Part shown: positions 13,041 through 25,789 of the stretch, in pieces
Numbering within the stretch: the first letter of the stretch is position 1
Layout of the letters: each line of letters starts with the position of its first letter
Translations under genes and position numbers: made by a program
The notes under the pieces: model-generated
The model's database searches: none
Told to the model about the DNA's origin: nothing
Seen by the model: the letters and a program-made list of their open reading frames with translations, nothing else
From: Escherichia phage SP27
DNA length: 64,000 bases
Sequence record: LC494302.1
Direction: 5' to 3' (one strand)

Positions 13041-13073
13041 AGATTTTATCAAGACAACTAAGAGGAAATTAAA

Positions 13074-13498: not shown

Positions 13499-13768
13499 AT
13501 GAAAAATATCAGTACTTTAATCGATGCAGGTACACATGTTCGGCGGTCTATGGTTGCAACCAGTACTACAAAACAAGTAGCGAGCGGTTATCTTGTATTT
13601 GTGCACGATGGAAAACTCCTGGAACGTTCAATCAATTTTGATGTTAAAAACAATTGCCGTTTTATTATCTTTAAGCGTGAGCAATATAAAATTGATTTAC
13701 CAGCAAAGCCCATTAGTGGGGCGTACAACGTGCAATCAATGTTTGAACGTCAACCATACACCTATTAA
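13499..13768 (+). CDS. hypothetical protein
   Basis: 89 aa. Confidence 0.5.
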   Translation: MKNISTLIDAGTHVRRSMVATSTTKQVASGYLVFVHDGKLLERSINFDVKNNCRFIIFKREQYKIDLPAKPISGAYNVQSMFERQPYTY

Positions 13769-13819
13769 TCAAAACATCGTTAGCGGTCGATTCAGGCCGC
13801 TTATATTGGGGATTATACC

Positions 13820-14092
13820 ATGAACGTTAATCAAGTACTGAATGAGATCGAAAGCATCATTAAACCGATGAAGCGTACTGATGCTATGTTAACACCGGAA
13901 GAATGCCGCCTTTATGAGCGTTACAGCGTCGAACAAGTCCAGGCAATGGCTATGGCTACCCCAGCCGTTAAACCGCCTGAGAATGCGTTACAGGACGTTA
14001 CAGGGGATTATATCATCAATCCAGTACTAGGGAAGATGGCTGCAATCACCGAAGATCAACAAGACTACTTAAGCCAGTACTTAAAAGGTTAA
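13820..14092 (+). CDS. hypothetical protein
   Basis: 90 aa. Confidence 0.5.
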   Translation: MNVNQVLNEIESIIKPMKRTDAMLTPEECRLYERYSVEQVQAMAMATPAVKPPENALQDVTGDYIINPVLGKMAAITEDQQDYLSQYLKG

Positions 14093-14097
14093 TTAAT

Positions 14098-14307
14098 ATG
14101 CTTACTGTACAGGATAAGATCGACATCTTAAAGGTTAATATGTATGTGATTGATGCAGTACCTGGTAAAGTATTTGCATACGATGATAGTACTGTAAGCG
14201 ATTTCTACTATAGCCAGGCCGTGGGGGATCTTTCTGTACAGTCGGTTATTGAAAACGTAGTTAATGCAGCGTATGAGCATTTACTTTCAAATAGTACTTG
14301 CAATTAG
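14098..14307 (+). CDS. hypothetical protein
   Basis: 69 aa immediately after previous gene. Confidence 0.5.
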   Translation: MLTVQDKIDILKVNMYVIDAVPGKVFAYDDSTVSDFYYSQAVGDLSVQSVIENVVNAAYEHLLSNSTCN

Positions 14308-14357
14308 TTTTTAAACGCGTATAATGTTTTACATGAAGGGGAGAAATGATTCTCCCC
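14298..14357 (+). promoter_or_regulatory. class I early promoter plus 5' stem-loop cassette
   Basis: TTGCAA 14298-14303, TATAAT 14320-14325; hairpin GGGGAGAAatgaTTCTCCCC 14338-14357. Confidence 0.65.
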
Positions 14358-14376
14358 ACTAATTAAGGAATATGAA

Positions 14377-14523
14377 ATGAAAGCATCAAAAAAGAGTACT
14401 AACAAGAAAGCACGTTCAACCTTAGATGGGGTATTCCCTTTACGTTTCGTTGATGAAGTGGTTTCCTACCCGCCTGGCCTTACTCCTGAGATGGTAGAAA
14501 GTTTGCGTAAATCTAAAAAATAG
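14377..14523 (+). CDS. hypothetical small basic protein (48 aa, below ORF-track cutoff)
   Basis: read by hand: MKASKKSTNKKARSTLDG...; AAGGA RBS. Confidence 0.4.
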   Translation: MKASKKSTNKKARSTLDGVFPLRFVDEVVSYPPGLTPEMVESLRKSKK

Positions 14524-14526
14524 TAC

Positions 14527-14586
14527 TTGCAATTAGTTTTTAGTACTGTATAATGTTTTACATAGAGGGGGGAAATGGTTCTCCCC
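14527..14586 (+). promoter_or_regulatory. class I early promoter plus 5' stem-loop cassette
   Basis: TTGCAA 14527-14532, TATAAT 14549-14554; hairpin GGGGGGAAatggTTCTCCCC. Confidence 0.65.
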
Positions 14587-14604
14587 AATAACAGGAGAAA
14601 CAAA

Positions 14605-14757
14605 ATGAAACAATACAACGCTCGGTTTGATGTTACTATCGGCAACGGTAAAGGTCAATTCTCTTTCAGTACTCGACGCAGTTATACAGAAAACTTCCTG
14701 CGTAATTGTGCACTGACCGCCGCACAAATTAAACATTACTTTCAGGCTAAAAAATGA
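14605..14757 (+). CDS. hypothetical small protein (50 aa)
   Basis: start at ATG 14605 (MKQYNARFDV) after AGGAGA RBS. Confidence 0.45.
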   Translation: MKQYNARFDVTIGNGKGQFSFSTRRSYTENFLRNCALTAAQIKHYFQAKK

Positions 14758-14843
14758 GATCATTAGCTTATTACAGTTCGGCCCTGGTCGGTGCATTGAT
14801 CGCGGCGTTGTTAGTAACCTATCTATTCTTTATGGTGATTTAA
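14754..14843 (+). CDS. possible small hydrophobic peptide (29 aa)
   Basis: read by hand: MRSLAYYSSALVGALIAALLVTYLFFMVI; ATGA overlap. Confidence 0.3.
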   Translation: MRSLAYYSSALVGALIAALLVTYLFFMVI

Positions 14844-14981
14844 ATGAATCCTAACGGTATAATTTACAGTACTCCTAAAACGAAAGCAGACAAGGTAAAC
14901 GCTAAAAAAGCGAAAGTAAAGGAGTACATCAAGCAAGGCATGACGCGAAAGGCGGCGATTCTAAAAGCTAAAAATAAATGA
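14844..14981 (+). CDS. possible small Lys-rich protein (45 aa)
   Basis: read by hand: MNPNGIIYSTPKTKADKVNAKKAKVKEY... Confidence 0.3.
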   Translation: MNPNGIIYSTPKTKADKVNAKKAKVKEYIKQGMTRKAAILKAKNK

Positions 14982-14987
14982 AAAAAG

Positions 14988-15009
14988 TGGTTGACTTCGG
15001 TCAGCCATT
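14988..15009 (+). terminator. intrinsic terminator (first part of repeated intergenic module)
   Basis: GGTTGAC-TTCG-GTCAGCC hairpin with tetraloop, then TTTTGC. Confidence 0.5.
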
Positions 15010-15112
15010 TTGCTATTATATATTCATTGAGAGATAGCTCACTAGCCCACAGGGTGCAGGAGTGTATCTATTGTATAATGTTTGAGTACTTAAAACTATT
15101 TTTAAAAAAGTA

Positions 15113-15172
15113 CTTGCAAACTATCTCAATAAGCGTATAATGTTTTACATCGCAAGGGGAAACGGTTTCCCC
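15113..15172 (+). promoter_or_regulatory. class I early promoter plus 5' stem-loop cassette
   Basis: TTGCAA 15113-15118, TATAAT 15135-15140; hairpin GGGGAAacggTTTCCCC 15156-15172. Confidence 0.65.
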
Positions 15173-15192
15173 TAGTAATAAGGAAACAAATC

Positions 15193-15534
15193 ATGACTAT
15201 CTCAATTGCTCAATCTAACTTTGAAAACGAAATCATCGCCCAGGCACTGCGTTTAAATGATGGTCGGGCCGAAATCAATTACGGTTTCAATTCAGGCGGT
15301 TGTGAAAAATATCAGTACTTTATAACTGCTGATGGCTGTGTCCTGGGCATCAATACAGTTATTGTAAACATCCAAAAAATTAATTTCAATGATCCAGACG
15401 ATAGCCAGTTTTACATCACTGGCGTAGACGTGAACTATGAGGATGACTCACTAACTGATGATCACACTGGCGAGCGGTTAGAAAGTGCATACGGTGAAGA
15501 TGATTATCAGTCCGGTCCAGAAGATTTCGAATAA
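15193..15534 (+). CDS. hypothetical acidic protein
   Basis: 113 aa. Confidence 0.55.
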   Translation: MTISIAQSNFENEIIAQALRLNDGRAEINYGFNSGGCEKYQYFITADGCVLGINTVIVNIQKINFNDPDDSQFYITGVDVNYEDDSLTDDHTGERLESAYGEDDYQSGPEDFE

Positions 15535-15547
15535 TATAAAAAAATAG

Positions 15548-15606
15548 TTTGACAATAGATTATAGTACTGTATAATGTTTTACATGAAGGGGAGAATAGT
15601 TCTCCC
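15548..15606 (+). promoter_or_regulatory. promoter plus 5' stem-loop cassette (TTGACA variant)
   Basis: TTGACA 15548-15553, TAGTACTGTATAAT -10; hairpin GGGGAGAAtagTTCTCCCC. Confidence 0.65.
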
Positions 15607-15627
15607 CACTAACAGAGAGAAAACAAA

Positions 15628-15840
15628 ATGGCTAATATCCGGTCGAAATTAAAAAATGCAAAACAAGTTTTATTTTCAGATCATGAATACTTTAATAAAG
15701 ATATTACAGGAGTTACAAGTATCAAGGAAGTAAAAGAAAAAACCGGCGTTTTGTGTGATGTGCGATTAGTTGGAACATTTGGGAATAACGTGCTATATCG
15801 CTGCGGTGATTACAATTTTACACTGACTATCATTAACTAA
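15628..15840 (+). CDS. hypothetical protein
   Basis: 70 aa. Confidence 0.55.
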   Translation: MANIRSKLKNAKQVLFSDHEYFNKDITGVTSIKEVKEKTGVLCDVRLVGTFGNNVLYRCGDYNFTLTIIN

Positions 15841-15868
15841 AAATATTATCACAGTACTATCAAAGCTA

Positions 15869-15897
15869 TTGACAATGATTGATAGTACTGGCATAAT
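15869..15897 (+). promoter_or_regulatory. class II promoter
   Basis: CAGTACTATcaaagctATTGACAatgattgatAGTACTGGCATAAT. Confidence 0.6.
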
Positions 15898-15932
15898 AAC
15901 TTTTATCAACTACACTACTAAGGAATTAAAAA

Positions 15933-16112
15933 ATGGCTATCATCGCAAAAACTGAAATCGTTGGTCTGGATTCTATCATCATGACGTTTGAAGATCAAAA
16001 AGGTATGTATGTAGTTTCCTATGGTGATTATGTTCGGGAGTATGAAACGGTAGACGAAGCCTTTGAAAGTTATATTCGCCAGGTGAATAAAGCATACGAC
16101 GACTACCGCTAA
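15933..16112 (+). CDS. hypothetical small protein (59 aa, below ORF-track cutoff)
   Basis: read by hand: MAIIAKTEIVGLDSIIMTFEDQKG...; AAGGA RBS. Confidence 0.45.
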   Translation: MAIIAKTEIVGLDSIIMTFEDQKGMYVVSYGDYVREYETVDEAFESYIRQVNKAYDDYR

Positions 16113-16139
16113 AATATATTACCAGTACTATTAAATCTA

Positions 16140-16168
16140 TTGACAATGTTTGATAGTACTGTATAATA
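16140..16168 (+). promoter_or_regulatory. class II promoter
   Basis: CAGTACTATtaaatctATTGACAatgtttgatAGTACTGTATAAT. Confidence 0.6.
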
Positions 16169-16211
16169 AGTTTTATAAACAGTAGTTAACTTAACCTAAG
16201 AGAGAAATAAA

Positions 16212-16355
16212 ATGATCGCACTGGATTCATTCATCGACGCAGTACTGGCAAAAACTGGCGAGGATCTGACCGCAGAACAATACGCGATGATCGAACAATG
16301 TCAACAGGACGGTAAATCGGTGAAAGATACTGTTAAGATTATCCGCAAGATGTAA
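16212..16355 (+). CDS. hypothetical small protein (47 aa, below ORF-track cutoff)
   Basis: read by hand: MIALDSFIDAVLAKTGEDLTAEQYAMIEQCQQDG...; followed by terminator. Confidence 0.45.
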   Translation: MIALDSFIDAVLAKTGEDLTAEQYAMIEQCQQDGKSVKDTVKIIRKM

Positions 16356-16361
16356 GATTAT

Positions 16362-16390
16362 AGCCCACTGGTTAACGCTGGTGGGCTTTA
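16362..16390 (+). terminator. intrinsic terminator
   Basis: AGCCCACtggttaacgctgGTGGGCT hairpin, weak T-run. Confidence 0.5.
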
Positions 16391-16460
16391 ATTCATCACC
16401 CTATACAATGCCAGTACTCAACCGTTTATCTCGTTAGAATGCGTTACAGGACGTTTAACA

Positions 16461-16658
16461 ATGATTAGCATGAAATCAGTACAAAAACAAATAGAAACAT
16501 TATCAAAAATTAAACGTAAACAGTACTCCTTAGAATATACAATCAATGGTAACTATCATCTAATGAAAGAGAATAATTTTATAGTCATTGATGAATCATT
16601 GCAAATCATTAGTATAGTACTGAAAGCATTAATCAATGACAGAAAAAAATTAAAATAA
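16461..16658 (+). CDS. hypothetical protein
   Basis: 65 aa. Confidence 0.45.
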   Translation: MISMKSVQKQIETLSKIKRKQYSLEYTINGNYHLMKENNFIVIDESLQIISIVLKALINDRKKLK

Positions 16659-16662
16659 TCTA

Positions 16663-16691
16663 TTGACAATATCATCCAGTACTGGCATAAT
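16663..16691 (+). promoter_or_regulatory. class II promoter
   Basis: ATTGACAatatcatccAGTACTGGCATAAT; followed by about 300 nt leader with TGATCA repeats. Confidence 0.55.
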
Positions 16692-16989
16692 ACTTACACC
16701 AAGACGAGAACGTCACTAACCCATAGGGTGCACAAATGTAACTGTATAATATTGATCAAAAAATGATCTGATCAATACTTGATCAATTTGCGTAAAGTAG
16801 TATAATTCTATGCAGTTGGTTAGACGAAAGGTTATGATTAGTAGTGCAAGTGTATAAAAATTTTCATGGTGTATCGTTCCGCACATATGGGGATGAATAT
16901 GTGGTATCATGTGGATTGGAAAAAGTAAGAACAAGTAATATTATTGTCGCATTACAGTACTATAGTATTTTTATAATGAGGTTAAAATA

Positions 16990-17247
16990 ATGGCTGTAGG
17001 ATTCGCGAAAGATGGGGCCGAACAAGACGAGATTAACGCAGTGATTCAGGCTGCCGTTAACCACGCTAGAAAGCAAATTAACGCACAAATAGAATCACTG
17101 ATACATTGCCTCGACTGCGGCGATATAATCCCTGAGAAACGACGCCAGGCCGTTAAGGGATGTAAGTACTGCATAACTTGCCAGGAGGATCATGATAGTA
17201 CTTTTAAACGTCCCCCGCGTAATTGTTGGCATAGATCTATGAGATAA
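16990..17247 (+). CDS. TraR/DksA-family C4 zinc-finger protein
   Basis: INAQ...CLDCGDIIPEKRRQAVKGCKYCITCQ matches the TraR core INAH...CEACGNPIPEARRKIFPGVTLCVECQ as I recall it. Confidence 0.75.
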   Translation: MAVGFAKDGAEQDEINAVIQAAVNHARKQINAQIESLIHCLDCGDIIPEKRRQAVKGCKYCITCQEDHDSTFKRPPRNCWHRSMR

Positions 17248-17253
17248 AAAGTA

Positions 17254-17281
17254 TTGACAGTACTGAAAGATAGTTTATAAT
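17254..17281 (+). promoter_or_regulatory. sigma70-like promoter
   Basis: TTGACAgtactgaaagatagttTATAAT. Confidence 0.55.
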
Positions 17282-17310
17282 ATTTTATATCTTAACTGAG
17301 GATTGAAATC

Positions 17311-17667
17311 ATGGGAATACAACATATCACGCGTACTACTGACAATGGCGAGATCACTGGCTATCAAGTACAGGGCAAAGTAGCACAATTGCAGTACTGG
17401 TTTGTTAAACGTGGAATCATTGCACCGGATCTTGATTATGACCGTGTAGCGTTTATTGATTCTCTTTATGTTGATCCTGATAGTCGGGGCAATGGTGAAG
17501 GTAACGAATTAATGAATGCCTTTATTGATGCCGCCGATGATTCAGATTGTATCATCTTAGAATGCGATACGGGAGAAGATAACGCCTTTAATCTTAAAGA
17601 ATGGTACGAAGGTTTCGGATTCGAGGTATTGATAGATAGTGAATATCCTATCATGATTTTATCATAG
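17311..17667 (+). CDS. GNAT-family acetyltransferase-like protein
   Basis: LYVDPDSRGNGEGNELMNAF resembles the acetyl-CoA-binding R/Q-x-x-G-x-G/A motif of GNAT enzymes; 118 aa. Confidence 0.45.
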   Translation: MGIQHITRTTDNGEITGYQVQGKVAQLQYWFVKRGIIAPDLDYDRVAFIDSLYVDPDSRGNGEGNELMNAFIDAADDSDCIILECDTGEDNAFNLKEWYEGFGFEVLIDSEYPIMILS

Positions 17668-17669
17668 TA

Positions 17670-17727
17670 CTTGCATTTAGTTTTCAGTACTGTTATAGTA
17701 CTTACATCAAGGGGAAACATCTTCCCC
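17670..17727 (+). promoter_or_regulatory. class I early promoter plus 5' stem-loop cassette
   Basis: TTGCAT 17670-17675, TATAGT -10; hairpin GGGGAAacatcTTCCCC 17711-17727. Confidence 0.55.
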
Positions 17728-17745
17728 TACTAAGAGGAAATGAAA

Positions 17746-17934
17746 ATGGAAAACTTATCAAGTATTTTAGTACAAGATGATTTCGGTAATCCTGGAAGTG
17801 CTATCATTGTTCGGGGCAATAAAGCAACGTTTGTTATTGCTGGTGGACCCGTACAGCGTAGCATTAAAAATAATGCTGTTACCATTAATAATGTACGCTA
17901 TCGCTTAGATAAAGAATTAATTCATAAACTGTAA
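17746..17934 (+). CDS. hypothetical protein
   Basis: start at second ATG (MENLSS), 7 nt after GAGGA. Confidence 0.5.
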   Translation: MENLSSILVQDDFGNPGSAIIVRGNKATFVIAGGPVQRSIKNNAVTINNVRYRLDKELIHKL

Positions 17935-17961
17935 TATTAATTTAATAGAGGATAACAATAA

Positions 17962-18285
17962 ATGTACATTCATACTACTATCACAAAGGAAGTCCGTTGC
18001 CAGTTCGAAAGTATTCCGGGCGTATGTTTCATCACTGGTACGTTTTCCCCTGGTGATCGTGATAATCCAGTACTGTTACAATTACGCCATCCATCATGGG
18101 ATAAAGCATTTGATCTACCGTTGAATGAATTCGCAACTACTGCTGAAAAGTACATTAAAAATATTCGCGAGAATGATCGACTATTCATTAATGCTTTTAG
18201 TGATTCCGCGTTAAGCGAGATCCACGGCGTATTGGTTGCAATCATGGAATCAATGCAGAAAACTAAATTCAAACAAGGTGAATAA
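17962..18285 (+). CDS. hypothetical protein
   Basis: 107 aa; GAGGATAA RBS region. Confidence 0.55.
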   Translation: MYIHTTITKEVRCQFESIPGVCFITGTFSPGDRDNPVLLQLRHPSWDKAFDLPLNEFATTAEKYIKNIRENDRLFINAFSDSALSEIHGVLVAIMESMQKTKFKQGE

Positions 18286-18291
18286 AAACTA

Positions 18292-18351
18292 TTGACAATA
18301 GATTATAGTACTGTATAATAAGTTACATGAAGGGGAGAAATGATTCTCCCC
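18292..18351 (+). promoter_or_regulatory. promoter plus 5' stem-loop cassette (TTGACA variant)
   Basis: TTGACA 18292-18297, TATAAT 18314-18319; hairpin GGGGAGAAatgaTTCTCCCC 18332-18351. Confidence 0.65.
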
Positions 18352-18368
18352 ACTGAGAGGAAAGAAAA

Positions 18369-18581
18369 ATGCAAGGTCAACTAATCGTTCGTAAATGGTC
18401 TGATACTAACGAAAAACCGTGGGATGTACAATACATCGGACCGGATGGGGTATCACGTTATCAGCCTGGCGTAACGCATAGTACTGAGCAATATGCCGCC
18501 GCTCACCGCGAACGCCTGTTAGAATCCATGAAACAGGGATTCTGTGAAAAATTCATTCAAGATCATTGGCTGAAAGATTAA
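18369..18581 (+). CDS. hypothetical protein
   Basis: 70 aa. Confidence 0.55.
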   Translation: MQGQLIVRKWSDTNEKPWDVQYIGPDGVSRYQPGVTHSTEQYAAAHRERLLESMKQGFCEKFIQDHWLKD

Positions 18582-18598
18582 TAGAAGGAGTACAGCTT

Positions 18599-18691
18599 AT
18601 GCAAATGAATCCGATGATTATTGTTTTAGCTGTACTTATGATCATTCATGCAATTGTAGAAGTATTAACGCAATCAGGAGTAATAAAATGA
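18599..18691 (+). CDS. possible small membrane peptide (30 aa)
   Basis: read by hand: MQMNPMIIVLAVLMIIHAIVEVLTQSGVIK; AAGGAG RBS 8 nt upstream. Confidence 0.4.
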   Translation: MQMNPMIIVLAVLMIIHAIVEVLTQSGVIK

Positions 18692-18861
18692 TTCAAGTAG
18701 AATTATCAGTACTGAAAGATCTGTTTTATCGGTTAGGTACTACTGGAGAGTATCCTAAAAGTGATACCGCAAAACTTTTTGTATCACTCGATTTATGGCA
18801 ACGCGAACAATTAGTAATGTCCTGGCGTAAAGGTAAAGCAGATAGCGAGGTGAAAGCATGA
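18688..18861 (+). CDS. hypothetical small protein (57 aa)
   Basis: ATGA overlap with previous; read by hand. Confidence 0.4.
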   Translation: MIQVELSVLKDLFYRLGTTGEYPKSDTAKLFVSLDLWQREQLVMSWRKGKADSEVKA

Positions 18862-19007
18862 AAGAATTCTTATTCGAAGTAGTGTTTCAAGGTGTCGGTA
18901 GTAATCAATTGATTCGCTCAAGTGGTTACAATGTTAACCAGGCATGGAATAACATTAAACAAATGTACCCGAACGCTATCACATATCGCAACCCAAAAGA
19001 AGTTTAA
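18858..19007 (+). CDS. hypothetical small protein (49 aa)
   Basis: ATGA overlap with previous; read by hand. Confidence 0.4.
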   Translation: MKEFLFEVVFQGVGSNQLIRSSGYNVNQAWNNIKQMYPNAITYRNPKEV

Positions 19008-19021
19008 AAATAATTGAAAAA

Positions 19022-19043
19022 GGGATTGACTCCGGTCAGTCCC
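19022..19043 (+). terminator. intrinsic terminator (first part of repeated intergenic module)
   Basis: GGGATTGAC-TCCG-GTCAGTCCC hairpin preceded by A-run, followed by TTTGC. Confidence 0.55.
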
Positions 19044-19145
19044 TTTGCTATTATATACGCATAGAAACAAATCAGCCCACCGGGTGCATAAATGTATCTA
19101 TTGTTTGCTGGTGGCTAGTACTGAAAACTATTTTTAAAAAAGTAC

Positions 19146-19173
19146 TTGCATTGTACTTAGAATCAAGTATAAT
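19146..19173 (+). promoter_or_regulatory. class I early promoter
   Basis: AAAAAGTACTTGCATtgtacttagaatcaaGTATAATGTTTTACATC. Confidence 0.65.
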
Positions 19174-19182
19174 GTTTTACAT

Positions 19183-19251
19183 CAGGACGGGGAACGAAAC
19201 AAGTAACCCCGTTAAGTAGTCCAGGAGTAAGACATACGAAAAACTCCCCTG
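19183..19251 (+). other. conserved structured RNA-like element, copy 2
   Basis: near-identical to 8206-8277 with a few substitutions; same flanking promoter arrangement. Confidence 0.4.
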
Positions 19252-19261
19252 ATAAAATAGT

Positions 19262-19289
19262 TTGACAATAGAAAGTAAACGAGTATAAT
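19262..19289 (+). promoter_or_regulatory. sigma70-like promoter
   Basis: TTGACA 19262-19267, 16 bp spacer, TATAAT 19284-19289. Confidence 0.6.
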
Positions 19290-19322
19290 ACTTACATCAA
19301 CCACTGATAAGGAAACATAAAA

Positions 19323-19598
19323 ATGCGGATTCTACTGACAGCTAACGAAATCGAACAAGTACTGACTACTAACCTGGAAGACTGGAAACGTGAAGCAGAT
19401 ATCCAGGCGGTTCAATGGTTAAATGATAAGTTAACGCCGGATGACTTAAGCAAGATTGTAGATCCTCAATTCTACGAAGATATCCACGACACCGCGTTAA
19501 GCGTCGAGGATGTACTAGATAAGCACTTTATTGATACTGATTTGCAGGTTTACGGTCGTAAAAACTTTATCACTATTCACGACATTTACAATAATTAA
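19323..19598 (+). CDS. hypothetical acidic protein
   Basis: 91 aa. Confidence 0.55.
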   Translation: MRILLTANEIEQVLTTNLEDWKREADIQAVQWLNDKLTPDDLSKIVDPQFYEDIHDTALSVEDVLDKHFIDTDLQVYGRKNFITIHDIYNN

Positions 19599-19601
19599 GT
19601 A

Positions 19602-19664
19602 TTGACAAAGTATCTTAGTACTGTATAATAGTTTACATCGAGTGAGGGGAAACGGTTCCCCTCC
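19602..19664 (+). promoter_or_regulatory. promoter plus 5' stem-loop cassette
   Basis: TTGACA 19602-19607, TATAAT 19624-19629; hairpin GAGGGGAAacggTTCCCCTC. Confidence 0.65.
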
Positions 19665-19686
19665 TAACAAAGAGAGAGAAATAAAA

Positions 19687-19869
19687 ATGGCTAAGTGCAC
19701 TATCTGCAAGAAAGAAATAGTATTAGTTCCAAGTGCCCGTGAACGTGCCGCTCGGTTCGGTGGCAAAGCGTCAGACTATACAAAAATGTTTACTGCCCAT
19801 ACAGCTTGCCAGGTAGCAAAACGTTCACAAGAAAGCGTAGAATTAATGCGTAAACTTTCCAAAAAATAA
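19687..19869 (+). CDS. hypothetical small protein with CxxC...HxxC
   Basis: start at ATG 19687 (MAKCTICKK); possible zinc-binding residues. Confidence 0.5.
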   Translation: MAKCTICKKEIVLVPSARERAARFGGKASDYTKMFTAHTACQVAKRSQESVELMRKLSKK

Positions 19870-19871
19870 GT

Positions 19872-19933
19872 ATTGACAAAGTATCTTAGTACTGTATAAT
19901 AGTTTACATCAAGTGAGGGGAATGGTTCCCCTC
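19872..19933 (+). promoter_or_regulatory. promoter plus 5' stem-loop cassette (near-duplicate of the 19602 cassette)
   Basis: identical GTATTGACAAAGTATCTTAGTACTGTATAATAGTTTACATC; hairpin GAGGGGAAtggTTCCCCTC. Confidence 0.65.
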
Positions 19934-19956
19934 CTAACTAAAAGAGAGAAATAAAA

Positions 19957-20280
19957 ATGGCTATGATCCTTGCCCAGAAAGTAGAATTGAAAATTGTAAC
20001 CTCCTTTGACATTAACGTTAATCGGTGGACTGATTCACACGGCAATACTTACCACTCTTGCTACGTGTCTGCGTTAATTGGCGACCGCTGGGAAGACCTG
20101 GGACACGAAACCTTTACATACGGTTACGGTACACAAGGCGAATACACGGGCTTGGAGATCATTAAAGAAACCGTTATAGGTTTCAACCCGAAAGAAAAAG
20201 TTATTCACCGCATCGAGGAAGAGATCAACAAAGAAATAACAGTTCGCTACCACGATGTAAAACGTAAGAAAGACATGTAA
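19957..20280 (+). CDS. hypothetical protein, paralog of 13074..13418
   Basis: shares GNTY, YGYG and DVKRKKD. Confidence 0.6.
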   Translation: MAMILAQKVELKIVTSFDINVNRWTDSHGNTYHSCYVSALIGDRWEDLGHETFTYGYGTQGEYTGLEIIKETVIGFNPKEKVIHRIEEEINKEITVRYHDVKRKKDM

Positions 20281-20302
20281 TAGAATCCATTTAAAGTACT
20301 AT

Positions 20303-20331
20303 TTGACATTGCCCAGATAGTACTTTATAAT
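20303..20331 (+). promoter_or_regulatory. sigma70-like promoter
   Basis: TTGACAttgcccagatagtacttTATAAT. Confidence 0.5.
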
Positions 20332-20375
20332 AGACTCTAACTTGTAGTACTAACTCAACTAATAGGATGTATACC

Positions 20376-20771
20376 ATGATTACTAAATTCTACGCTACCC
20401 GTGAAGCTGCCCGTATTGTTGCACGCGAGGAAGGCGAAACATTTAAAGACATGGGCAAAGATGCACCGAAAGGTCAACGCTGGGCCGTACAGTTCAAAGA
20501 GATCTCTGATATTGTGAATTCACCGGAGCCAGTACTAACAGCAGCAGAACTAAAACGAGCGGATTTACTGGCGTCAATACTTGATGCACAAGATGAGTTT
20601 ATCGCTGATTCTGATATCAAAGTACAGACAAACCACACCGCTTGGACTCACGCGGATCACCTGGCAAACCTTAAGCGTCCAAGTGAACTGATTCGCAACC
20701 AGAAAGAGATCCGACACGACCGTAAGGGTAATCGTGTAACAGTATACAGTAAACGCCGCCAGGTTATCTAA
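20376..20771 (+). CDS. hypothetical protein, paralog of 7335..7601
   Basis: start at ATG 20376 (MITKFYATREAARIVAR); C-term HDRKGNRVTVY. Confidence 0.6.
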   Translation: MITKFYATREAARIVAREEGETFKDMGKDAPKGQRWAVQFKEISDIVNSPEPVLTAAELKRADLLASILDAQDEFIADSDIKVQTNHTAWTHADHLANLKRPSELIRNQKEIRHDRKGNRVTVYSKRRQVI

Positions 20772-20803
20772 TAACTTGCAGTACTAACAACACGGCGGGA
20801 TCA

Positions 20804-20829
20804 GTTCCCGCCTTTTTTATAGGACAAAC
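20804..20829 (+). terminator. intrinsic terminator
   Basis: GGCGGGAtcagTTCCCGCC followed by TTTTTT. Confidence 0.7.
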
Positions 20830-20832
20830 AAA

Positions 20833-21087
20833 ATGATTAAGGTTCAACTATATAAAGATAACATCTTACGGGTACACTATAAAGCACCTCAGAGAATCAT
20901 CACAAAGGCCGTACAGCTTGCAAATGAGTTTATTAATGGTAACCTATTACCTAGGAAGTTAAGCAACGGGAAACTGCGTGTAATCGACGTGGACACTAAC
21001 AACAGGATAGTAATCGAGAACACAGGAAAGATAAACCTTTATGAGCATCAACAATACAATAAGAAAATAAAACTAATATCACGTTGA
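20833..21087 (+). CDS. hypothetical protein
   Basis: 84 aa. Confidence 0.5.
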   Translation: MIKVQLYKDNILRVHYKAPQRIITKAVQLANEFINGNLLPRKLSNGKLRVIDVDTNNRIVIENTGKINLYEHQQYNKKIKLISR

Positions 21088-21140
21088 CAGTACTCAAATG
21101 TTTTAGTACTATATGTACATACCAACACGGGGGAAACAAA

Positions 21141-21383
21141 ATGATTACTTTAGAAAAACGTATCAAAGAAACTACATCGCTGGTGGAACTGTTAACAGTA
21201 CTCAAATGTAAAACAACACCATTCAGCACGCCGGACTTTATTAATATGGTTGATGTTAATGGTCGCTATCGTATCACGGTCGAACAAGGAGCGGCGAAAG
21301 TATTCAGTACTAAAAACACGAAGGAAGTGATCCACGCCGTTAATGTTAAAAAAGTAGTTGCCATTGATAGTAAAGTACTGTAA
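21141..21383 (+). CDS. hypothetical protein
   Basis: start at ATG 21141 (MITLEKRIKE). Confidence 0.5.
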   Translation: MITLEKRIKETTSLVELLTVLKCKTTPFSTPDFINMVDVNGRYRITVEQGAAKVFSTKNTKEVIHAVNVKKVVAIDSKVL

Positions 21384-21414
21384 GATAGTTACATTAACTC
21401 AAGGAGAACATGCA

Positions 21415-21999
21415 ATGCGTAATTATACTAAATTCATCCGTACACTGTCAGAAATGGAAACCAACAAAGAGATCCTTTCAGCTTGTCGGTTAGCTGGCCT
21501 GGAGATCATCGGTGCTGGTTCTTCCCGTATAGTTTTCGCTTTAAATGATCGGTTAGTGATTAAGGTCGCGAATTGTGATGCGGGTGTAGAACAAAATGAA
21601 ACTGAATGTAAGGTATGGAATTTTTTAGACTATGACCGCCCTCAGTTGAAACAGTACTTTGCAAAGGTGCATATGCATTTATGCGATCCTGATAATATGT
21701 TTATCGTTATGGATCGGTTGAGTACTGCAAGTAAAGGCAGTGTGAAGCACGTAAACGCGTGCAATGAATTAAAGTACAATATTAAACGTAATGCAATCGA
21801 CCGCCAGCACCGCTTTGCTGATGCACTACAACACGTTGATGATACATTATCAACACTAACGATAAGAGATATCAGAAAACAGAATATCGGCCAGGATCGT
21901 AATGGACTTATTAAAGTACTTGATTACGGTTTAACCAGCAATATCTGGAATCAGTACTATAAAAAGCGTGATGTGGCAGCAAGTAAGGTAACACGATAA
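21415..21999 (+). CDS. protein-kinase-like protein (putative small Ser/Thr kinase)
   Basis: IGAGSSRIVF (Gly loop), VIKV (beta3 Lys), RDIRKQNIG (catalytic-loop-like) and KVLDYG (DFG-like) in canonical order; start at ATG 21415 after AAGGAG. Confidence 0.5.
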   Translation: MRNYTKFIRTLSEMETNKEILSACRLAGLEIIGAGSSRIVFALNDRLVIKVANCDAGVEQNETECKVWNFLDYDRPQLKQYFAKVHMHLCDPDNMFIVMDRLSTASKGSVKHVNACNELKYNIKRNAIDRQHRFADALQHVDDTLSTLTIRDIRKQNIGQDRNGLIKVLDYGLTSNIWNQYYKKRDVAASKVTR

Positions 22000-22013
22000 A
22001 AAAGATTAAAAAA

Positions 22014-22035
22014 GGGATTGACTCCGGTCAGTCCC
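22014..22035 (+). terminator. intrinsic terminator (first part of repeated intergenic module)
   Basis: GGGATTGAC-TCCG-GTCAGTCCC hairpin, identical to copies at 19022 and 24270. Confidence 0.55.
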
Positions 22036-22140
22036 TTTGCTATTATATATCCATTGAGAGATAACTCACTGACCCATAGGGTGCGGAAGTGTATCTATTA
22101 TATAAGTATTCAGTACTGAAAACTATTTTTAAAAAAGTAC

Positions 22141-22202
22141 TTGCATTGTACTTAGAATCAAGTATAATGTTTTATATCGAGAGGGGAAATGGTTCTCCCT
22201 GG
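22141..22202 (+). promoter_or_regulatory. class I early promoter plus 5' stem-loop cassette
   Basis: TTGCAT 22141-22146, TATAAT 22163-22168; hairpin AGGGGAAatggTTCTCCCT. Confidence 0.6.
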
Positions 22203-22219
22203 CAATAAGGAATAAAATC

Positions 22220-22441
22220 ATGACTACAATGACTTGCATTTACGCTTCCAATCTACTGAATGATGCGGCCTTTAATGTTGATTCAGAATATCAATGTTAT
22301 CGGGATGAAAATAAAAAAGTTTTTGTAGTTGATAATAATGGTTTCCATATTGAATTACAATCCGGCTTCACTGGTGTTGATGGTAAATCAGTATGGGGCG
22401 TACAGGATGATAAAGGCACATATCATTTTAAACGTAATTAA
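22220..22441 (+). CDS. hypothetical protein
   Basis: 73 aa. Confidence 0.55.
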   Translation: MTTMTCIYASNLLNDAAFNVDSEYQCYRDENKKVFVVDNNGFHIELQSGFTGVDGKSVWGVQDDKGTYHFKRN

Positions 22442-22444
22442 GTA

Positions 22445-22503
22445 TTGACAAAGTATACCAGTACTGTATAATAGTTTACATCAAGGGGAGAATAGTTCTC
22501 CCC
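22445..22503 (+). promoter_or_regulatory. promoter plus 5' stem-loop cassette
   Basis: TTGACA 22445-22450, TATAAT 22467-22472; hairpin GGGGAGAAtagTTCTCCCC 22485-22503. Confidence 0.65.
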
Positions 22504-22525
22504 GATACTAAAAGGAAACAAAATT

Positions 22526-22798
22526 ATGTCCAGCTACTCCGCTACTATGATCATTAAAGATATGAACGGTAATCCTACTTCTGCTGGTGGATCATTTGGA
22601 AACATTAATTTAGATGGTCGGTTATCCATGCAATCAGCAATCGATGCAGCGAAAGAAGTTTTTAAGAATGAATGTACTGTTAGTAAGCTGGATTATATGG
22701 GATTTGCTATCGAAAAAACTAATCGTTTTGTGGACTACAAAAAACCACTGATGATTGATACTAACCTGAAAGCAAACGAAGTGGAGTACTTATTATGA
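22526..22798 (+). CDS. hypothetical protein
   Basis: 90 aa. Confidence 0.55.
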   Translation: MSSYSATMIIKDMNGNPTSAGGSFGNINLDGRLSMQSAIDAAKEVFKNECTVSKLDYMGFAIEKTNRFVDYKKPLMIDTNLKANEVEYLL

Positions 22799-22986
22799 CA
22801 GTTGAAGAAGTTAAAAAAGTACTGGCAGTACTACGCTATCATAATCATTGTAAGGTGAAGAATGATCCTGATTATCTTGATTCATCCCTGGAAGAGGATA
22901 CACTACAAGCAATAAGCCATATGCAAACATTAGCAAAGCGTATGACCGAAAAGAATAGACCGGACTATATCGGAAATAAAATTTAA
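22795..22986 (+). CDS. hypothetical protein
   Basis: ATGA overlap with previous gene. Confidence 0.5.
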   Translation: MTVEEVKKVLAVLRYHNHCKVKNDPDYLDSSLEEDTLQAISHMQTLAKRMTEKNRPDYIGNKI

Positions 22987-22993
22987 AAAGTAC

Positions 22994-23054
22994 TTGCATT
23001 GTAGTTAGATTAACGTATAATGTTTTACATAGAGCGGGGGAATAGTTCTCCCGC
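22994..23054 (+). promoter_or_regulatory. class I early promoter plus 5' stem-loop cassette
   Basis: TTGCAT 22994-22999, TATAAT 23016-23021; hairpin GCGGGGGAAtagTTCTCCCGC. Confidence 0.65.
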
Positions 23055-23072
23055 CAGTCCAGGAGATACACC

Positions 23073-23336
23073 ATGAACACTATCGAAATCACTATCAATG
23101 CACACGTATACGACAACGTAATCATGCAAACTACTATGACCGCTAATGATACCAGTACTTTGCGGAATACTGTTATTAGTGCCGTATGTGCCGCTATCGG
23201 TGATGTCGCCCTGGAAAATGCAGAACATATCAACAACGGTTTCACTATGTGCAAGCGTGATAACGCAAAACATATCATCGTAGAAGGTTACGGCGGTGTA
23301 GAATTTAATGTTTATATGAAAAAAGTACTTGCATAA
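23073..23336 (+). CDS. hypothetical protein
   Basis: 87 aa. Confidence 0.55.
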   Translation: MNTIEITINAHVYDNVIMQTTMTANDTSTLRNTVISAVCAAIGDVALENAEHINNGFTMCKRDNAKHIIVEGYGGVEFNVYMKKVLA

Positions 23337-23385
23337 TAACTAAAACAAAGTATAATGTTTTGCATAGGGGGAGATATCCTCCCCC
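23329..23385 (+). promoter_or_regulatory. class I early promoter plus 5' stem-loop cassette
   Basis: TTGCAT 23329-23334, TATAAT 23351-23356; hairpin GGGGGAGatatcCTCCCCC. Confidence 0.6.
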
Positions 23386-23403
23386 ACTAAAAGGAGTAAT
23401 AAA

Positions 23404-23628
23404 ATGGCTAACTTTGATGAACTGATGCGGGAAGTAGCTAACCTGGCAGAAGAGAAGAAATCATTCGATTCTATCTATAACACCGCTCATCGTGATTCAG
23501 TACTGGCATGTACTCAGGATCAAAAAGATGAACTAATCGCCACCTATCATGAAGCATGGAAGTACTACCGACAATGGGAGAAAGAAGAAAGAGAGTCTAC
23601 CATTGACGGCCTCAACAATCTAATCTAA
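23404..23628 (+). CDS. hypothetical protein
   Basis: 74 aa. Confidence 0.55.
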   Translation: MANFDELMREVANLAEEKKSFDSIYNTAHRDSVLACTQDQKDELIATYHEAWKYYRQWEKEERESTIDGLNNLI

Positions 23629-23647
23629 AAGTTTTATTTCAGTACTA

Positions 23648-23676
23648 TTGACATAGCTTGATAGTACTGATGTAAT
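23648..23676 (+). promoter_or_regulatory. class II promoter
   Basis: CAGTACTATTGACAtagcttgatAGTACTGATGTAAT. Confidence 0.5.
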
Positions 23677-23704
23677 AACTTTACTAACTACAAGGGGAAA
23701 CATA

Positions 23705-23962
23705 ATGGAACAGTTCACACAATATCGGGTAAATCCTCAAGCTATGGCCTACGTAGAAGACCATAAAACATTACCAGTACTAACACCAATTAAAGGCCAT
23801 ATCTATCGTGCAATGTCATGGAATACCGCCCAGGATGGATATACTACCGCTGGCGTGGGTATGTATTGCGGGAATGGTGAATGGTTTGATCCAAATAATC
23901 CGGTAGCCATTGACAGTACTGAAAAAATGAAATGGGCCGACTACATCGAAGATATTTCATAA
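23705..23962 (+). CDS. hypothetical protein
   Basis: 85 aa. Confidence 0.55.
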   Translation: MEQFTQYRVNPQAMAYVEDHKTLPVLTPIKGHIYRAMSWNTAQDGYTTAGVGMYCGNGEWFDPNNPVAIDSTEKMKWADYIEDIS

Positions 23963-23968
23963 AACTAT

Positions 23969-24029
23969 TTGACAGTACTAACCAGTAATGTATAATGTTT
24001 TACATAGAGCGGGGGAATAGTTCTCCCGC
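23969..24029 (+). promoter_or_regulatory. promoter plus 5' stem-loop cassette
   Basis: TTGACA 23969-23974, TATAAT 23991-23996; hairpin GCGGGGGAAtagTTCTCCCGC, identical to the one at 23034. Confidence 0.65.
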
Positions 24030-24051
24030 CAATAGTTTGGAGTAAAACATT

Positions 24052-24252
24052 ATGTCTATCGCTATCGCCCTGGTTGAAGTACTGAAAGAAGCTAAAGCCA
24101 ACCAGATCGACGTAAAGATCCAGGAACTACAAAACGGCGTAATCGGCTGTACTTGTACCGCTGGTGGAGCGGCAGACTATCGAGAACACGAATCACTCGA
24201 ATCACTGGTTCGGTATCTTACCATGATCGTTGATGATTGGAGAATCATCTAA
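24052..24252 (+). CDS. hypothetical protein
   Basis: 66 aa. Confidence 0.55.
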   Translation: MSIAIALVEVLKEAKANQIDVKIQELQNGVIGCTCTAGGAADYREHESLESLVRYLTMIVDDWRII

Positions 24253-24269
24253 CAAAAAAGAATAAAAAA

Positions 24270-24291
24270 GGGATTGACTCCGGTCAGTCCC
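24270..24291 (+). terminator. intrinsic terminator (first part of repeated intergenic module)
   Basis: GGGATTGAC-TCCG-GTCAGTCCC hairpin. Confidence 0.55.
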
Positions 24292-24414
24292 TTTGCTATT
24301 ATATACGCATAGACAAAAACTAGCCCACAGGGTGCATAGGTGTATCTAAAATATATGGTTAATAACGGTGAGTAACTATCTGCTGGTGGAGTGAAAACTA
24401 TTAATAAAAAAGTA

Positions 24415-24443
24415 TTGACAAAGTATATCAGTACTGCGATAAT
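24415..24443 (+). promoter_or_regulatory. class II-like promoter
   Basis: TTGACAaagtatatcAGTACTGCGATAAT; downstream variant hairpin GGGCGGCaatggtgcgacGGCCC. Confidence 0.5.
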
Positions 24444-24496
24444 GTATCTCGTAGGGCGGCAATGGTGCGACGGCCCACAAAGTTAGGAGATTCAAA

Positions 24497-24829
24497 ATGA
24501 GTACTTCAATCGCTATCGTTAAAGCTTTCATCCGTACCAATGTTTCATCTGTATTCATCGACGGTATGGATCGGGAAGTAGAATACTCAATCATTATCGC
24601 ACAGACTGCAAACGGTGCTCGGTATATCCTCAATGATAGTGAAGCAAATCACTACTACTTCACTAAAGCTACTGGCTTTAAACGCATCGATGCCGATGTA
24701 GTATACGCTAAGATGAATAAGCTGGTAGACAAGATTAACGCTAAAGGCACTATTGATTTACAGTACTGGACCGAAACCGATCCAGAATATGGATCTCACC
24801 GCTACCTGAATCCAGGTATTAAAATGTAA
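24497..24829 (+). CDS. hypothetical protein
   Basis: 110 aa; AGGAGA RBS. Confidence 0.55.
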   Translation: MSTSIAIVKAFIRTNVSSVFIDGMDREVEYSIIIAQTANGARYILNDSEANHYYFTKATGFKRIDADVVYAKMNKLVDKINAKGTIDLQYWTETDPEYGSHRYLNPGIKM

Positions 24830-24836
24830 AAAGTAC

Positions 24837-24898
24837 TTGCATAGTACTTAGATTCATGTATAATGTTTTACATAGAGAGGGGGAAATGGTTCTCCCTC
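24837..24898 (+). promoter_or_regulatory. class I early promoter plus 5' stem-loop cassette
   Basis: TTGCAT 24837-24842, TATAAT 24859-24864; hairpin GAGGGGGAAatggTTCTCCCTC. Confidence 0.65.
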
Positions 24899-24918
24899 CT
24901 AAATTAAGGAGTTTTATC

Positions 24919-25320
24919 ATGACCTTCTCAATCACTTCCTTCGCTGACGTTTTAGTACTGGCTCGGACTTTTGGTAAAGATGCACTGGAGTACGCTGTAA
25001 GTAATGGCACTATCCAACCGGAACAGTGCCGCATCATTGGAAACTGCAAACGTTGGGCGGTATCCAATACTATTGCACTGGAAAACTTCCACGATGGCAA
25101 CAATGAATATTCTGTTGATGTAGTATTCGAAGCCGTTGATCTCGGCGGTATCTATAATACTAACCTGAATGATGTGCGTATCGTTCGCACGGGGTTCGGT
25201 GCTTATGATGTATCTATCCGTGAAGCTATGAACACCGGATACATTAGCAAGGACTTACTTGCTCACATCATGCAGCTGTGTACGGAACGTAACGAAGCAC
25301 GTACTATCTTAGGGCTGTAA
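24919..25320 (+). CDS. hypothetical protein
   Basis: start at ATG 24919 (MTFSITSF) after AAGGAG. Confidence 0.55.
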   Translation: MTFSITSFADVLVLARTFGKDALEYAVSNGTIQPEQCRIIGNCKRWAVSNTIALENFHDGNNEYSVDVVFEAVDLGGIYNTNLNDVRIVRTGFGAYDVSIREAMNTGYISKDLLAHIMQLCTERNEARTILGL

Positions 25321-25344
25321 GCAATACACATCACCAAACATCAT

Positions 25345-25365
25345 AGGCCGCTCTCTAGCGGCCTT
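25345..25365 (+). terminator. possible terminator hairpin
   Basis: AGGCCGCtctctaGCGGCCT; no clear T-run. Confidence 0.35.
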
Positions 25366-25388
25366 AACTATATCAGGAGTACATACAC

Positions 25389-25598
25389 ATGATCTATACA
25401 GTATACAGCGTCCTAGGCACTATTGCAGGCGTACATGATAACGTCGATAGTGCTATGCGTACAGTACTGCAACAGGTTCCACTAAAGCCTAAGACCATTA
25501 AGCAGATGACAGCACGACTAACCAGGGCGACCGATGGCGTGGAAGTATGGCAGGACTACGGGGATACACAGATAATCGTTAGCGTAACGAAGGATTAA
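25389..25598 (+). CDS. hypothetical protein
   Basis: 69 aa; AGGAG RBS. Confidence 0.55.
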   Translation: MIYTVYSVLGTIAGVHDNVDSAMRTVLQQVPLKPKTIKQMTARLTRATDGVEVWQDYGDTQIIVSVTKD

Positions 25599-25626
25599 TG
25601 CGTAAAGGGATCTAGTACTGATTCAG

Positions 25627-25692
25627 AAAAAAGTCAAGGCGTTTTTAAAATTATGCGTTAAAAAAATGCATAGGTAATCCCTTGACTTTTTT
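25627..25692. terminator. long imperfect hairpin, possible bidirectional terminator
   Basis: AAAAAAGTCAAGG ... CCTTGACTTTTTT arms enclosing about 40 nt, at the boundary before family B array. Confidence 0.45.
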
Positions 25693-25789
25693 GAAATAAA
25701 AGGGATTGGACTATGGCAAAATGCGTAGGGGGCTAAAGGGCGGGTAACCTTAGCGACTTCGATAAAGGGGTATTACGAATAAAATGTTA

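Follow-up and report, generated by a model that had tools for sequence, protein, structure and literature searches.

Introduction

The question raised by the locus described here is whether a small gene of Escherichia phage SP27 encodes a kinase and, if so, which purpose such an enzyme might serve. The gene was analysed within a stretch of 64,000 nucleotides (nt) of sequence record LC494302.1, which in the following is referred to as the window. A sequence-only reading of this stretch had placed the gene, located at positions 21415-21999, among the early genes, had identified four kinase-like motifs in its roughly 194-residue product and had considered a role in host takeover or counter-defence. 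Judged from its motifs and from the segments which it lacks, the product is a minimal kinase and not a canonical Hanks kinase. Its assignment to the protein-kinase-like (PKL) fold superfamily, a matter of prediction, is secure, as alignments to PDB entries and profiles, a structural model based on 72 sequences and an independent HHpred search with the homologue of phage Muenster agree. Considering the conservation of the catalytic residues together with this fold, the protein is very probably an active kinase-fold phosphotransferase.

Gene product and catalytic motifs

The reading frame starts with an ATG at 21415, is preceded by the ribosome-binding sequence AAGGAG and terminates with a TAA ending at 21999. 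The product proposed earlier is hence indeed encoded, with a length of 194 amino acids (aa), a mass of 22.4 kDa and an isoelectric point (pI) of 9.2. Another ATG, located at 21410, is out of frame with this open reading frame (ORF), and the start used here is identical to the one annotated for the orthologues of phages Sharanji, vB_Ec-M-J and 121Q, that of Sharanji being gp063 (WNN14351.1). The window belongs to an E. coli jumbo phage of the Asteriusvirus (PBECO4/121Q-like) type; over 4 kb surrounding the gene, its identity to Asteriusvirus jumbo phages of E. coli (e.g., PBECO4, 121Q, G17, Sharanji and fEgEco12) amounts to 96-97%. The protein itself is 90-99.5% identical in 34 Asteriusvirus-type records and 35-42% identical in jumbo phages of Klebsiella (RaK2, K64-1, Muenster), Salmonella (Munch), Erwinia and Xanthomonas, whereby a ratio of nonsynonymous to synonymous substitution rates (dN/dS) of 0.04-0.18 among orthologues documents purifying selection. 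A tblastn search for a kinase paralogue within the 64-kb window gave chance matches only, one of which (36871-36981) corresponds to a non-kinase ORF.

All four motifs noted earlier are present in the canonical order, namely the glycine-rich loop at residues 32-41 (with G33-x-G35-S-S-R38), VIKV at residues 48-51 (K50 codon at nt 21562-21564), RDIRKQNIG at residues 151-159 and KVLDYG at residues 167-172 (D170 codon at nt 21922-21924). Their order and spacing are those of eukaryotic-like protein kinases, as N157 and D170 follow D152 by five and 18 residues, respectively; the counterparts in PKA, found at identical spacing, are D166, N171 and D184. The earlier likening of RDIRKQNIG to the catalytic loop HRD-x-K-x-x-N holds true for D152 and N157 and the spacing between them. 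It fails for the lysine, since K155 resides at D+3 instead of D+2, and within the loop sequence I-R-D-I-R-K the HRD histidine is missing as well; neither of the two positions is kept in the family.

When the PDB was searched with the sequence of the single protein, the best 20 matches were all protein kinases, in which the HRD Asp, the catalytic-loop Asn and the DFG Asp are aligned with D152, N157 and D170. Family profiles gave 251 PDB matches at E<=1 (11-sequence profile) and 181 at E<=0.1 (72-sequence profile), almost exclusively to kinases and with the catalytic motifs in register, whereby the catalytic loop was aligned to the HRDxKxxN of MKK4, MKK7, PknB-like kinases and BTK. Among Pfam families, Pkinase is the sole consistent match of the phage family, with a best E of 5.7e-6 and five of 72 members matching at E<=0.01. 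Independently, the annotators of the Muenster homologue obtained an HHpred match to a plant kinase structure with 99.9% probability. As the sequence matches in the PDB, the family profiles and the predicted structure all give kinase, the motif match is beyond chance.

Residue conservation and predicted fold

Conservation was counted over 72 aligned relatives, many of which are only 20-28% identical to the SP27 protein. Invariant throughout are R38, K50, G57, Q60, E64, D170 and G172, while G35, S36, N61, D152 (71 of 72 sequences) and G159 are almost so; among the residues kept are thus the beta3 Lys, the helix-C Glu, the catalytic Asp and the DFG Asp, i.e., the four that are most needed for kinase catalysis. 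Position 157, an asparagine in the SP27 protein, is occupied by N in 30, S in 19, H in 13 and Q in eight of the sequences.

Structure prediction with AlphaFold yielded an unusable model when based on 11 close sequences (predicted local distance difference test, pLDDT, of 48.7) and was redone with the 72 diverse sequences, which resulted in a pLDDT of 95.3 and a predicted template modelling score (pTM) of 0.91. The model is two-lobed and comprises an N-lobe sheet, helix C, helices D and E and a catalytic-loop hairpin, with a strand at residues 47-52 and a helix at residues 55-73. Profile search and structure prediction, both of which the sequence-only reading had proposed as checks, thus revealed kinase matches in register and a kinase fold, so that the assignment as a protein-kinase-like gene is upheld by the model and by the near-complete conservation of K50, E64, D152 and D170. 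Among the Foldseek matches in the PDB were APH(2''), MEK1, Lpg2603, IRAK4 and PRPK. The chain ends 22 residues after the DYG, and one short helix (residues 175-182) is modelled there; the activation segment, the APE motif and helices F-I (subdomains VIII-XI; about 100 residues) are missing. In protein kinases this half is responsible for peptide-substrate binding and for the anchoring of the hydrophobic spines.

Table 1. Features of the kinase-like gene and its surroundings (positions refer to the window).
Feature	Position	Strand	Remarks
Coding sequence, minimal protein-kinase-like enzyme	21415..21999	+	194 codons + TAA stop
Shine-Dalgarno sequence AAGGAG	21401..21406	+	8 nt 5' of ATG; sequence read directly
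Glycine-rich ATP-binding loop IGAGSSRIVF, residues 32-41	21508..21537	+	Family motif G-x-G-S-S-R-x-V
beta3 Lys K50 to helix-C Glu E64	21562..21606	+	Family signature K-x-A-x-N-x-x-G-x-x-Q-N-x-x-E
Catalytic loop RDIRKQNIG, residues 151-159	21865..21891	+	D152 putative catalytic base, N157 putative metal ligand
DYG, residues 170-172, DFG counterpart (Mg-binding)	21922..21930	+	Aligned to DFG; 22 residues to C-terminus
Equivalent of direct terminal repeat	4822..25750	+	Mapped from vB_Ec-M-J; right boundary approximate
ParE-like toxin-fold ORF, 84 aa	20833..21087	+	Pfam PF24732 ParE_like, E=6.4e-11, above threshold
Nearest upstream sigma-70-like promoter, TTGACA-17-TACTAT	21084..21112	+	Promoter scan, 10/12 matches
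Small upstream ORF, 80 aa, no family match	21141..21383	+	Probably co-transcribed with kinase gene
38-nt hairpin/promoter element AAAGGGATTGACTCCGGTCAGTCCCTTTGCTATTATAT	22011..22048	+	Starts 12 nt after kinase stop codon

The PHROG 4301 family

The SP27 protein matches PHROG 4301 ("unknown function") with E=2.4e-41 over residues 3-188, no other PHROG being assigned, and the same PHROG is matched by 72 of the 72 aligned relatives. Its members include RaK2 H6X4G3, Munch gp046, Muenster gp043, PBECO4 L7TKF0 and Sharanji gp063; these relatives share length, motifs and terminal-repeat position with the SP27 protein, and no difference was seen. "Putative protein kinase" is an existing label on several PHROG 4301 records. 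Kinase-like labels are given in GenBank for Munch, Muenster, K64-1, ph0011 and the Turkey phages and in UniProt for PBECO4, and the 2025 Sharanji paper lists the orthologue as a further protein kinase of unknown function. The kinase likeness is thus already on record and its annotation is not new.

An exhaustive, metagenome-scale profile search over 1.84 billion cluster representatives (50% identity clusters) gave 2,085 relatives at E<=0.001 and 253 at E<=1e-10. The search for related loci was built on a 13-sequence sub-alignment. A peptide-pattern search, with few patterns and limited sensitivity, identified 214 loci in IMG/VR versus a single one in 185,579 species genomes, the latter residing on a 4.9-kb contig of a metagenome-assembled genome. 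Many family members are found on contigs of 100-460 kb, and the family is widespread in large phages and essentially viral.

Next to single-domain members, tandem arrays were found in which two to four complete kinase-like domains are part of one polypeptide (P0021, P0022, P0028, P0033). That such proteins are gene-calling artefacts was considered and rejected for one example, since it is encoded by one continuous frame in the standard code. In one protein of 3,248 aa, two kinase-like domains are found C-terminal to a tape-measure domain, and in P0111 (2,130 aa) the kinase-like domain is joined to a 2H phosphoesterase and a CCA-adding enzyme; P0136 and locus L019 216-1331 are listed with these multi-domain forms.

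Genomic setting

Related phages carry a direct terminal repeat (DTR), and the gene is located in the part of the window which corresponds to it. The first base of vB_Ec-M-J falls on window position 4822 and its DTR, annotated with 21,525 bp, ends at about 25750; the distance from the kinase gene to the inner end of the repeat is hence approximately 3.8 kb. A DTR is annotated in vB_Ec-M-J and in Muenster, whose homologue is found at a similar place in a 20-kb repeat, and for fEgEco12 a DTR of 20,993 bp has been verified with restriction digests (PMC13070987). The DTR equivalent is presumed to be the first-entering early region. As the window crosses both the left physical genome end of related phages and the inner DTR boundary (4822 and about 25750), the source record was reasoned to be a permuted or collapsed assembly.

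Perfect sigma-70 sites (TTGACA-N16/17-TATAAT) occur 12 times in the window versus 0.13 times expected, and all 12 are located on the + strand between 5186 and 23996, i.e., within the DTR equivalent. In most of them the spacer ends with AGTACTG immediately 5' of TATAAT, which points to an early-promoter consensus specific to the phage. The earlier placement among the early genes is in line with this setting: as the gene resides in the DTR, where small genes follow each other in one direction behind consensus sigma-70 promoters, its early expression is likely from position. The 80-aa ORF and the kinase gene are probably transcribed together from the nearest upstream promoter (Table 1), and weak homologues of this small ORF are found just 5' of the kinase gene in Munch and Hallingskeid. 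Within 17-27 kb of the window, the kinase ORF alone has a homologue in all five diverged relatives compared.

The 38-nt element downstream of the gene comprises a 12-bp hairpin (-19.5 kcal/mol; z=-4.75 in context), the stem of which holds a TTGACT -35 box that is followed by TATTAT. The element is likely to represent a transcript end or attenuator combined with a promoter for the next gene; since it contains no T-run, it is not a classical intrinsic terminator. Three identical copies were identified on the + strand (19019-19056, 22011-22048 and 24267-24304). Intergenic stretches of 60-130 nt were found by BLAST to recur many times inside the repeat. An extra 219-nt gene (Sharanji gp065), which in Sharanji, 121Q and vB_Ec-M-J is located between the ParE-like gene and the ORF 5' of the kinase gene, is missing from the window (21084-21383 versus Sharanji L001 2450-2969) and represents a small indel in an otherwise collinear region.

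The ParE-like ORF is located two genes 5' of the kinase gene. With its counterparts in a 101-kb metagenomic relative and in Muenster, where it is annotated as a YafQ-like toxin, its product shares 85% and 65% identity, respectively, and is thus more conserved than the kinase; a ParE-like toxin-fold protein without an obvious antitoxin is encoded in the presumably first-entering DNA. The gene order of the terminal repeat is conserved in general, about ten ORFs being common to the relatives compared.

Neighbourhoods of family members

Eight neighbourhoods of distant family members were read. In two of them, both on large phage contigs, the gene is located 3-5 kb from a CCA-adding enzyme, and in one of these it also adjoins nine tRNA genes and a T4-type RNA ligase 1. 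The kinase-like proteins of these two are 55% identical and the phages are related. The remaining six neighbourhoods are characterized by replication genes, DNA methylases, structural genes or small-ORF arrays. tRNA genes were found in the flanks of two of 60 family loci, which is about chance level, and none is located in the 64-kb window. An RNA- or tRNA-repair role was considered from two of these neighbourhoods and from the P0111 fusion and not retained, as a consistent linkage to RNA ligase, CCA-adding enzyme, 2H phosphoesterase and tRNA genes was not upheld, given two of 60 loci and otherwise unrelated contexts.

Neighbour clustering of 80 IMG/VR loci (L023-L102) revealed that about 30 of them place the gene between a 5'-3' exonuclease/DnaB and dUTPase/RecA. 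In this replication-module placement the family gene stands alone on the opposite strand, the carriers being an uncultured clade of large phages (e.g., L008, L014, L048), which looks like a clade-specific gene order and not like a functional clue. Taking together the eight neighbourhoods, the 60 tRNA-checked loci and the 80 clustered loci, no specific functional partner emerged. In the nine-tRNA cluster next to the family gene, which is located on a 324-kb ENA contig, ARAGORN identified a tRNA with the amber-reading anticodon CTA (L006 7-78; tRNA-Pyl label). This is possibly a suppressor tRNA and would then hint at stop-codon recoding in that phage.

Comparison with known kinases

With Hanks-type kinases (PF00069) the SP27 protein has in common the N-lobe and the catalytic core, including the glycine loop, Lys, Glu, Asp, Asn and DFG-like Asp in this order. 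Unlike Hanks-type kinases, it stays below the Pfam threshold and lacks the activation segment, the APE motif, helices F-I, the HRD His and the D+2 Lys, and it differs from ordinary kinases by the family-specific residues R38, G57 and Q60 (invariant) and N61 (nearly so).

T7 gp0.7 (T7K, PHROG 2828) is likewise a phage kinase-fold enzyme and is made early from host-RNA-polymerase promoters; predicted T7-like kinase structures were found among the viral structural neighbours, with template modelling (TM) scores of 0.53-0.56. Homology to T7 gp0.7 was rejected, as hhalign of the family profile gave a probability of 3.4% and the PHROG scan gives 4301 only. T7K possesses a DPV motif and a C-terminal shut-off/DNA-binding domain (PMC13645617), as opposed to a DYG followed by 22 residues in the SP27 protein. 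T7 gp0.7-type kinases are further marked by hyper-promiscuous phosphorylation of host proteins on Ser, Thr and Tyr soon after infection; of this, the SP27 gene shows the inferred early position in the genome. Asteriusviruses were reported to carry a separate T7K homologue (PMC13645617; also the Sharanji paper); a tblastn search with T7 gp0.7 gave T7-like phages only among the matches listed, and an Asteriusvirus T7K-like gene was not located by it. T7 kinase disarms bacterial defences, acting on many systems at once (PMC13645617), and by analogy T7K is a plausible functional counterpart as an anti-defence or takeover factor.

As a consequence of its short C-lobe, the SP27 protein was placed with the minimal kinases, i.e., OspG and SteC on the protein side and Bud32, Rio and Ark1 on the other side. 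With about 196 aa, OspG is of almost the same length. The minimal effector kinases OspG and SteC are genuine protein kinases, whereby OspG requires a partner for activity, and OspG, NleH and SteC resemble the SP27 protein in having a comparable size and a depleted C-lobe and in that they act inside the target cell on its proteins (PMC13395416). They differ in that they keep the helix-F region needed for activity (PMC13395416), in their eukaryotic hosts and in the absence of significant full-length similarity; the 72-sequence profile gave a weak match to the SteC N-lobe (8jbi_D, E=0.004). For Bud32/PRPK, Rio and Ark1, no sequence-level relationship to the SP27 protein was detected, the structural scores are no better than those of ordinary protein kinases, and for their signature motifs and partners (KEOPS complex, pre-40S ribosome, tRNA) no counterpart was shown for the SP27 protein.

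APH(2''), in turn, comprises about 300 aa and possesses a helical antibiotic-binding subdomain after the catalytic core. The SP27 protein is 16-20% identical to it, is about 100 residues shorter and lacks this subdomain; an identity as aminoglycoside phosphotransferase was rejected based on the missing C-terminal subdomain and the absence of a Pfam APH match. An anti-phage defence kinase of the PD-T4-6 type was rejected as well. PADLOC gave PD-T4-6 kinase matches over the catalytic core, the weakness of which (E=9e-4 to 8e-3) argues against membership in a defence system, and the gene sits in a lytic phage genome.

Proposed function and competing explanations

The explanation put forward here assumes an early-made minimal kinase-fold enzyme, which would phosphorylate host, and possibly phage, proteins for takeover or anti-defence. 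Taken as a whole and resting on analogy, it is regarded as somewhat better than an even proposition, while the substrates being proteins, taken by itself, is judged evenly balanced. According to this model, host RNA polymerase would transcribe the kinase gene as soon as the DNA enters the cell. In the enzyme thus formed, conserved residues and fold suggest that the G-x-G-S-S-R loop and V40 cover ATP, whereby E64 would hold K50, K50 would contact the alpha and beta phosphates and Mg2+ would be bound by N157 and D170. D152 is expected to activate the substrate hydroxyl, which would then take over the gamma-phosphate. As the activation loop, the P+1 loop and helices F-I are missing, the substrate would have to be recognised via another surface, e.g., the conserved C-terminal helix ending with Y181-Y182, or via a partner protein. 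Early phosphorylation of host, possibly also phage, proteins may then result in takeover or in blunted host defences, the SP27 kinase acting in addition to the T7-kinase-like gene which these phages carry separately. With T7 kinase and the bacterial effector kinases taken as analogues, host proteins are the most likely target; the tape-measure protein, an ejected virion protein with two copies of the domain, and the essentially viral distribution of the family were counted for an effect on the host as infection begins. The host-takeover or counter-defence role considered in the sequence-only reading is, on these analogies, plausible.

A number of points weigh against this explanation. The promoter closest to the gene matches the consensus at just ten of 12 positions. 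With E=0.0044 and 16.9 bits, the SP27 protein does not reach the curated gathering threshold of Pfam Pkinase (31.7), the D+2 lysine typical of Ser/Thr kinases is missing, and more than half of the family members have S, H or Q in place of the metal-binding Asn. The best structural match is the small-molecule kinase APH(2''), its lead over protein kinases being small, and the peptide-substrate-binding half of protein kinases is absent, which renders the "protein" kinase label a leading guess only. Among the minimal kinases, Bud32 and Rio act chiefly as ATPases. Archaeal Ark1 is a tRNA 2'-kinase with a minimal kinase fold (PMC9095486), and SteC residues 202-375, cut to a similar extent as the SP27 protein, are inactive (PMC13395416). 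As a T7K homologue is already found in Asteriusviruses, a second protein kinase would need a distinct role. In the searched literature no experimental work on the activity, substrate or expression of any PHROG 4301 member was found.

The loss of every peptide-binding element of ordinary protein kinases would equally fit an active kinase-fold enzyme with a non-protein substrate, be it RNA (as a 5'-OH or 2'-OH kinase, e.g., in tRNA repair versus host anticodon nucleases), a nucleotide or a small molecule. The fusion of P0111 to a 2H phosphoesterase and a CCA-adding enzyme points in the same direction, as do the two contigs with a CCA-adding enzyme close by, one of which carries the tRNA cluster and RNA ligase 1. 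However, the two CCA-linked neighbourhoods are not independent of each other, tRNA genes occur near family loci at about the chance level and not at all in the window, the six other contexts are of the replication, methylase, structural or small-ORF type, and the family pI of 4.5-9.9 documents no general nucleic-acid-binding charge; on balance a non-protein substrate is unlikely. A more far-reaching idea takes PHROG 4301 as a phage-specific minimal kinase class, made at once or injected with the DNA, which would either act on a non-protein substrate (as an RNA/tRNA end or 2'-OH kinase, by which RNA would be repaired or protected from host nucleases, or by another nucleotide transfer of the kind known from further unusual kinase folds) or be active only when docked on a host protein, with R38 and Q60-N61 taking part in that chemistry; this is rather improbable. 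A nucleotide-binding pseudokinase or ATPase, which acts by partner binding or has to be completed by a partner for activity, in the way OspG is by E2~ubiquitin, is quite improbable. It would be in line with the minimal C-lobe, the variation at position 157, the arrays of two to four domains, which could serve as scaffolds, and the ATPase function of Bud32 and Rio. It is further in line with the inactive truncated SteC core and with the partner requirement of OspG (PMC13395416). Against it stands that K50, E64, D152 and D170 are kept almost without exception at 20-25% identity, whereas pseudokinases usually lose at least one of these residues, and that in the SP27 protein N157 is kept as well.

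A joint action with the ParE-like gene (20833..21087), e.g., by phosphorylation control as in type VII toxin-antitoxin pairs, was considered in view of its position in the window, its location directly 5' of the kinase gene in the 101-kb contig (L015) and the YafQ-like toxin annotated two genes 5' in Muenster. The ParE-like gene is, however, 2 kb away in Hallingskeid and was not found within 3 kb in Munch and XbC2, the wider family resides in unrelated contexts, and the linkage is accounted for by the general gene-order conservation of about ten ORFs in the terminal repeat; this partner was therefore rejected, the pairing being very improbable. Finally, the subthreshold Pfam score of the single sequence, an NCBIfam scan of the SP27 protein that gave no match and the low pLDDT of the 11-sequence model would be compatible with a coincidental motif match in a protein without a kinase fold. 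Against this, the model based on the deep alignment is confident and has kinases as structural neighbours, the profile searches put all catalytic motifs in register, and the HHpred result for Muenster was obtained independently, so that the probability of a coincidence is close to negligible.

Implications

PHROG 4301 represents a second and much smaller phage kinase family, unrelated to T7 kinase, and in Rak2-like jumbo phages its gene resides in the DNA which is presumed to be the first to enter the cell. The protein is small, easily expressed and offers clear catalytic-dead controls, which makes these ideas directly testable. A non-protein substrate would widen the range of chemistry known for minimal kinase folds. 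If host proteins are phosphorylated, the enzyme would constitute a compact new tool for takeover or anti-defence, which would be of relevance to Asteriusvirus phage-therapy candidates.

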